Assembly: GCF_002854065.1 (NCBI RefSeq)
Contig: NZ_CP024147.1
Source of the DNA: Escherichia coli
GTDB taxonomy: Bacteria > Pseudomonadota > Gammaproteobacteria > Enterobacterales > Enterobacteriaceae
Reading direction: 5' to 3' (one strand)
Length of the DNA stretch: 64,000 nucleotides
The notes beneath the pieces were generated by a model that saw nothing but the letters and a program-made list of their open reading frames with translations, ran no database searches and was not told where the DNA came from. Numbering within the stretch: the stretch's first letter is position 1; the number at the start of each line of letters is the position of its first letter. Made by a program: the position numbers and the translations under genes. Of the stretch, positions 13,705 through 13,727 are shown piece by piece.

Positions 13705-13727
13705 AAGAAGGATGTTGTAACTAAAGT
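13705..13727. other. Replication terminus (Ter) site, TerB-like, overlapping the tus promoter region
   Basis: AAGAAGGATGTTGTAACTAAAGT contains the conserved Ter core GTTGTAACTAA; location just upstream of tus matches TerB. Flanking bases differ slightly from the TerB sequence as I recall it. Confidence 0.6.

Follow-up and report, generated by a model that had tools for sequence, protein, structure and literature searches.

The window analyzed here is a stretch of 64,000 bp of Escherichia coli DNA. It contains the genes folM, ydgC, rstA, rstB, tus, fumC and fumA in the same order and orientation as at 1.68 Mb in MG1655 (the class I fumarase gene fumA is labelled fumB by RefSeq in non-K-12 records). 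Between rstB and tus, the + strand carries the 23-mer AAGAAGGATGTTGTAACTAAAGT. The 23-mer spans positions -33 to -11 relative to the ATG of tus, leaving 10 bp between the two, a gap also mentioned for TerB and tus in PMC8707476. The features discussed below are collected in Table 1.

Table 1. Features of the rstB-tus-fumC region and of other parts of the window.
Feature	Position	Strand	Basis or remark
rstB, upstream neighbor, transcribed toward the non-permissive face of TerB	12361..13662	+	gene context
Candidate -35, TGGTCA	13677..13682	+	17 bp upstream of TATAAA; 4/6 match to TTGACA; putative
Candidate extended -10, TGcTATAAA	13697..13705	+	read from the sequence; abuts or overlaps Ter position 1; putative
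TerB, allele AAGAAGGATGTTGTAACTAAAGT (G3 and G7); predicted Tus-binding fork barrier, by analogy	13705..13727	+	21/23 identical to MG1655 TerB; orthologous position
G(6), paired with C(6) of the - strand, which flips into the pocket of Tus to form the lock (PMC4499146)	13710	+	sequence
Invariant Ter core GTTGTAACTAA	13714..13724	+	only exact match in the 64-kb window
10-bp spacer from TerB to the tus start codon	13728..13737	+	invariant in 10 strains
tus, encoding Tus (309 aa; I23A relative to K-12)	13738..14667	+	PF05472; identity to K-12
Overlapping stop codons of tus (+) and fumC (-)	14664..14667		convergent genes
IS1 target duplication, AATCCGCAA, first copy	22315..22323		9 bp
IS1 in the 3' end of uidB	22324..23091		768 bp
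IS1 target duplication, second copy	23092..23100		9 bp
Tandem repeat in rsxC	38660..39275		96 bp, 6.4 copies, 90% identity

The open reading frame downstream of the 23-mer encodes Tus, so that the cognate protein of a Ter site is encoded directly next to it. The predicted product matches Pfam PF05472 (4e-137) and is identical at 308 of 309 residues both to Tus of K-12 and to the protein of the crystal structures (PDB 1ECR, 2I05, 2I06); the single difference is I23A. The ATG at 13738 is the annotated start in MG1655. The longest open reading frame in this frame starts further upstream, at a GTG at 13726 that lies inside the Ter site (MVNIMARYD...).

We found that the 23-mer corresponds to TerB. 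The core of the site is conserved: G6 is present and positions 8-18 match ATGTTGTAACT. The 16-nt Ter consensus, AGNATGTTGTAACTAA, is matched perfectly at only one place in the window, namely in this 23-mer. MG1655 TerB is AATAAGTATGTTGTAACTAAAGT, located at 1,684,226-1,684,248 in the rstB-tus intergenic region; PMC4499146 gives this same sequence, within its native flanks, as TerB. When the rstB-tus intergenic regions were aligned, the 23-mer from the window was in register with MG1655 TerB and identical to it at 21 of 23 positions. The two sites occupy the same locus, lie on the same strand relative to tus at the same distance from its ATG, and share G6. No base differs from position 8 of the site through the 10-bp spacer to the ATG, and the Tus encoded downstream is the same protein apart from the residue noted above. 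Two substitutions, T to G at position 3 (13707) and T to G at position 7 (13711), account for all the differences within the 23 bp; K-12 TerB has T at both, whereas the allele in the window has G at both.

These results bear out the initial annotation, which had recognized a Ter site in this interval, 11-33 bp upstream of the tus start and containing the conserved Ter core, and had assigned it to TerB from its position. The comparison with known Ter sites that it proposed yields the identity to MG1655 TerB given above. It had also noticed two bases that differ from the TerB sequence it used for comparison, and had left open whether strain variation or an inexact reference was the cause. The TerB sequence it used is that of MG1655, and the two differences are therefore strain variation. 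Based on these results, the AAGAAGGATGTTGTAACTAAAGT site is almost certainly a rare natural allele of the chromosomal TerB of E. coli, and the window is confirmed to contain an intact tus-TerB module. TerB is an already known element. Only the description of the allele is new, and the understanding of Tus-Ter is unchanged by a rare TerB allele.

We found that the G3+G7 allele is rare. Of 5,426 complete E. coli genomes, 5,423 have a match of at least 90% identity to a 58-mer comprising the TerB-tus leader. Alleles were counted as exact 54-mer matches among the same 5,426 genomes. The K-12 allele of TerB was found in 2,329 genomes. An allele with G7 only (AATAAGG) was found in 795 genomes, including those of Nissle 1917 and ATCC 25922, and the allele of the window, with both G3 and G7 (AAGAAGG), in 5. 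The G7-only allele, AATAAGGATGTTGTAACTAAAGT, shares G7 with the window site and is identical to it at 22 of 23 positions, but it has T at position 3 and is common. Over 8 kb, the sequence around the site in Nissle diverges from the window by approximately 2.2%. In an alignment of ten strains, variation was limited to positions 2, 3 and 7 and to a 1-nt change in the length of an A run; G6, positions 8-23, the spacer and the ATG were invariant. The G3+G7 allele was not found in the published Ter comparisons consulted.

Of the five genomes with G3 and G7, two are from animals (a pig in Canada and a deer in Switzerland), one is from a human in Gambia, one from a vegetable in China and one from wastewater in Thailand. 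Over 8 kb around the site, the window differs from carrier 100416 by 1 base and from carrier CUWW06 by 2 bases. The other three carriers differ from the window by 57-81 bases (approximately 0.7-1% between groups). By flanking sequence, the carriers fall into at least three groups, and their RstA and RstB proteins are identical in all five. Because the allele occurs in at least three flank groups, it is not a sequencing error. Judged from these flanks, the G3+G7 allele is a real polymorphism, which would be either old or recombined.

Both changes are at positions that vary among Ter sites. We read five sites from the MG1655 genome, namely TerA (AATTAGTATGTTGTAACTAAAGT, - strand), TerB (AATAAGTATGTTGTAACTAAAGT, + strand), TerC (ATATAGGATGTTGTAACTAATAT, + strand), TerD (CATTAGTATGTTGTAACTAAATG, - strand) and TerG (GTCAAGGATGTTGTAACTAACCA, + strand). 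The names were checked against the map positions in Table 2 of PMC10331603. The core GTTGTAACTAA is identical in all five, and position 3 is T, A or C among them. G7 is native to TerC (ATATAGGATG...) and TerG (GTCAAGGATG...). ChIP-seq places Tus on six sites, these two included, and arrest occurs mainly at TerC (PMC8707476). TerC and TerG of MG1655 resemble the window site in having G7, in belonging to the + strand polarity class and in being identical to it from position 5 to position 20 (AGGATGTTGTAACTAA). They differ in that they lie at other loci, have other bases at positions 1-4 and 21-23 (18/23 and 17/23 identity, respectively) and, unlike TerB, are without association with the tus promoter. 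In E. coli, bp 1-5, 7 and 19-23 of ter are highly variable and bp 6 and 8-18 are the conserved core (Goodall et al., PMC8347550, Fig. 3 legend). Positions 3 and 7 both fall within this variable class.

We expect G3 and G7 to be functionally neutral, or nearly so. The intact core, together with the presence of G7 in the Tus-bound sites TerC and TerG, suggests that the allele in the window would bind Tus with high affinity and would form the lock at C(6). If so, G joins T, A and C as a base that a presumably functional Ter site can have at position 3.

Position 3 also lies near the -10 element of the presumed tus promoter, where a change may have a quantitative effect. In K-12, TerB overlaps the tus promoter and Tus represses its own gene, according to passages of PMC8707476 and PMC8347550 that cite Natarajan 1991 and Roecklein 1991; a passage of PMC10331603 likewise states that tus is autoregulated. 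By analogy, the Ter site in the window would overlap the tus promoter, and Tus bound there would repress tus (negative autoregulation). The sequence upstream of tus contains a plausible candidate for this promoter, TGGTCA-17-TGcTATAAA. Its -10 element abuts position 1 of the Ter site and would place the transcription start inside Ter, so bound Tus would occlude RNA polymerase. A scan for the sigma-70 consensus upstream of tus called no promoter in either the window or MG1655. The scan requires T at position 6 of the -10 element, which TATAAA does not have, and it is thus uninformative on the real promoter.

The K-12 sequence TATAAAAT holds two overlapping -10 candidates, TATAAA and TAAAAT. The second ends on Ter position 3, whose T would be the base at -7, and in the G3 allele it becomes TAAAAG. 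The site might therefore be the TerB orthologue in which T3>G, alone or with G7, measurably alters function, through either a weaker or stronger tus promoter or a change in the slowing of the replisome before the lock. The loss of the terminal T of TAAAAT would be consistent with the first of these, and the second would fit the report that formation of the lock is preceded by slowing and pausing of the replisome at T(3)-A(5) (PMC4499146). The rarity of the allele (5/5,426 genomes) also points in this direction. However, bp 1-5 are variable, other high-affinity Ter sites have T, A or C at position 3, and the candidate TGcTATAAA with TGGTCA at 17 bp is untouched by G3. In addition, the allele persists in five genomes of at least three groups, from five countries and several hosts, which disfavors a strongly deleterious effect. 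We consider it unlikely that the substitution measurably alters function. It seems slightly less likely still that T3>G is a natural allele by which a few lineages tune the copy number of Tus or the efficiency of arrest at TerB. Were T3>G functional, carriers would have a different dose of Tus or a different arrest efficiency at TerB. As a natural variant, the G3+G7 allele could at most serve in measurements of how much sequence change the non-permissive flank or the tus promoter tolerates.

We found that TerB in the window has the same polarity as TerB in K-12. The window is syntenic with MG1655 from approximately 1.67 to 1.73 Mb (ynfM/asr to lhr). The GC skew of the + strand is net negative (cumulative -0.33 over sixteen 4-kb bins), and all KOPS motifs (3/3) are on the - strand, a small number but consistent in direction. 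In the carrier genome NZ_CP062811.1, TerC (TCATAGGATGTTGTAACTAATAT) is approximately 101 kb away on the rstB side and on the same strand as TerB. Together, the negative GC skew, the KOPS motifs and the synteny indicate that dif and TerC are at lower coordinates and that the region is normally replicated leftward.

The non-permissive end of a Ter site is the end that holds positions 1-6 (PMC4499146). The site in the window reads from 1 to 23 on the + strand, and consequently it should block forks moving toward higher coordinates. Its non-permissive end faces the terminus, and its strand and the gene order match those of TerB, TerC and TerG in MG1655. As read from its orientation, the site is permissive to the entering fork and would block forks leaving the terminus, like TerB of K-12. 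The initial annotation had put the window in the replication terminus region of the chromosome, and the synteny with MG1655 and a negative GC skew, as expected just beyond dif, agree with this placement. It had also proposed checking the orientation against the direction of the fork; the non-permissive end faces lower coordinates, as it does in K-12 TerB. With this site, the window can be assigned to the replication terminus of an E. coli chromosome.

Genes on both sides are transcribed toward the site. There is no recognisable terminator between rstAB and TerB. Mohanty, Sahoo and Bastia are reported to have found in 1996 that Tus-Ter also impedes RNA polymerase, in a polar manner. In that case, transcripts reading through from rstAB would run into the blocking face of TerB. 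On the other side, tus and fumC are convergent, with overlapping stop codons. Terminators would have no room between the two genes, and thus the tus and fumC transcripts should each end in the other gene, in antisense. Transcription of fumC heads toward the permissive face of TerB.

We infer from the K-12 literature that the site binds Tus, forms a lock, arrests forks and mediates autorepression. Binding of Tus, produced from the adjacent gene, to the 23-bp site would be asymmetric. A replisome that travels in the + direction (from rstB to tus, out of the terminus) would meet the end with positions 1-6. DnaB would unwind the DNA up to G-C(6), and C(6) of the - strand would then flip into the cytosine pocket of Tus. 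The flipped base would lock the complex, and the fork would be arrested; the role of GC(6) in formation of the lock is described in PMC4499146. A fork moving in the - direction, as is normal for this region, would meet the permissive end and displace Tus.

The arrangement at tus resembles that in other fork traps. In both 'type I' and 'type II' traps of other Enterobacterales, a Ter site directly upstream of tus that acts as barrier and operator is a conserved feature (PMC8707476, PMC10331603), and the same double role is predicted here. In type I traps the tus-vicinal Ter is the innermost barrier. In contrast, here and in K-12, TerC is between TerB and dif. It might be argued from this that in vivo the site is essentially only the operator of tus and that its role as a fork barrier is vestigial, because TerC, nearer dif, would catch nearly all clockwise forks. 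TerB is indeed a second-line site behind TerC in E. coli, a 'type II' trap (PMC8707476, PMC10331603), and in NZ_CP062811.1 TerC lies between TerB and dif and has the polarity of TerB. However, G6 and the core are intact in the window site, and fork pausing in wild-type cells is significant at TerB and second only to that at TerC (Duggin and Bell, as described in passages of PMC10331603 and PMC8707476). A purely vestigial barrier thus seems very improbable, and we favor a site that is predicted to be both fork barrier and tus operator.

The resemblance to Ter is not attributable to chance. We searched the window with the K-12 TerB 23-mer, allowing up to 3 mismatches, and found 1 match; 100 dinucleotide-preserving shuffles of the window gave 0. 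A uniform-base estimate gives approximately 4e-6 chance matches at up to 2 mismatches in 128,000 positions. Although short core-like strings such as GCTGTAACTAA do arise randomly (a mean of 0.77 core matches with one mismatch per shuffled window), the 21/23 match to TerB with none in the shuffles, the orthologous position directly upstream of tus and the conservation of the site in 5,423/5,426 genomes refute a chance likeness to the Ter consensus unrelated to Tus, to which we assign a negligible probability. Two other Ter-like strings in the window, GCTGTAACTAA at 5817-5827 (at the pntA-pntB boundary) and TGAATTTTGTAACTGA at 48256-48271, were rejected, as their frequency equals the chance expectation.

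Several other features of the window and of a carrier genome were noted. Scans of the whole 64-kb window found no tRNA and no Rfam family at gathering score. There are 6 Chi sites in the window (2.0 expected), 3 on the + strand and 3 on the - strand; they have no strand bias and were not used for polarity. In NZ_CP062811.1, a lambdoid prophage (tail, tape-measure, gpJ, tfaQ, pinQ) at approximately 2.38-2.40 Mb lies between TerB and TerC and stretches the distance between them to the value given above, compared to approximately 75 kb in MG1655.

The gene for the glucuronide transporter, uidB, is interrupted in its 3' end by a copy of IS1 that carries the genes for InsA and InsB (Pfam PF03811, PF12759, PF03400). 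The element ends in inverted repeats of 23 bp, and the direct repeats on either side of it are the target duplication listed in Table 1. The UidB open reading frame that remains after the insertion is 422 aa. The insertion is absent from NZ_CP062811.1, and its junction was found in 0 of the 5,426 complete E. coli genomes. The tandem repeat in rsxC encodes a 32-aa repeat in the RsxC linker. BLAST of this region against NZ_CP062811.1 gave multiple offset matches, indicating that the number of copies may differ between strains.
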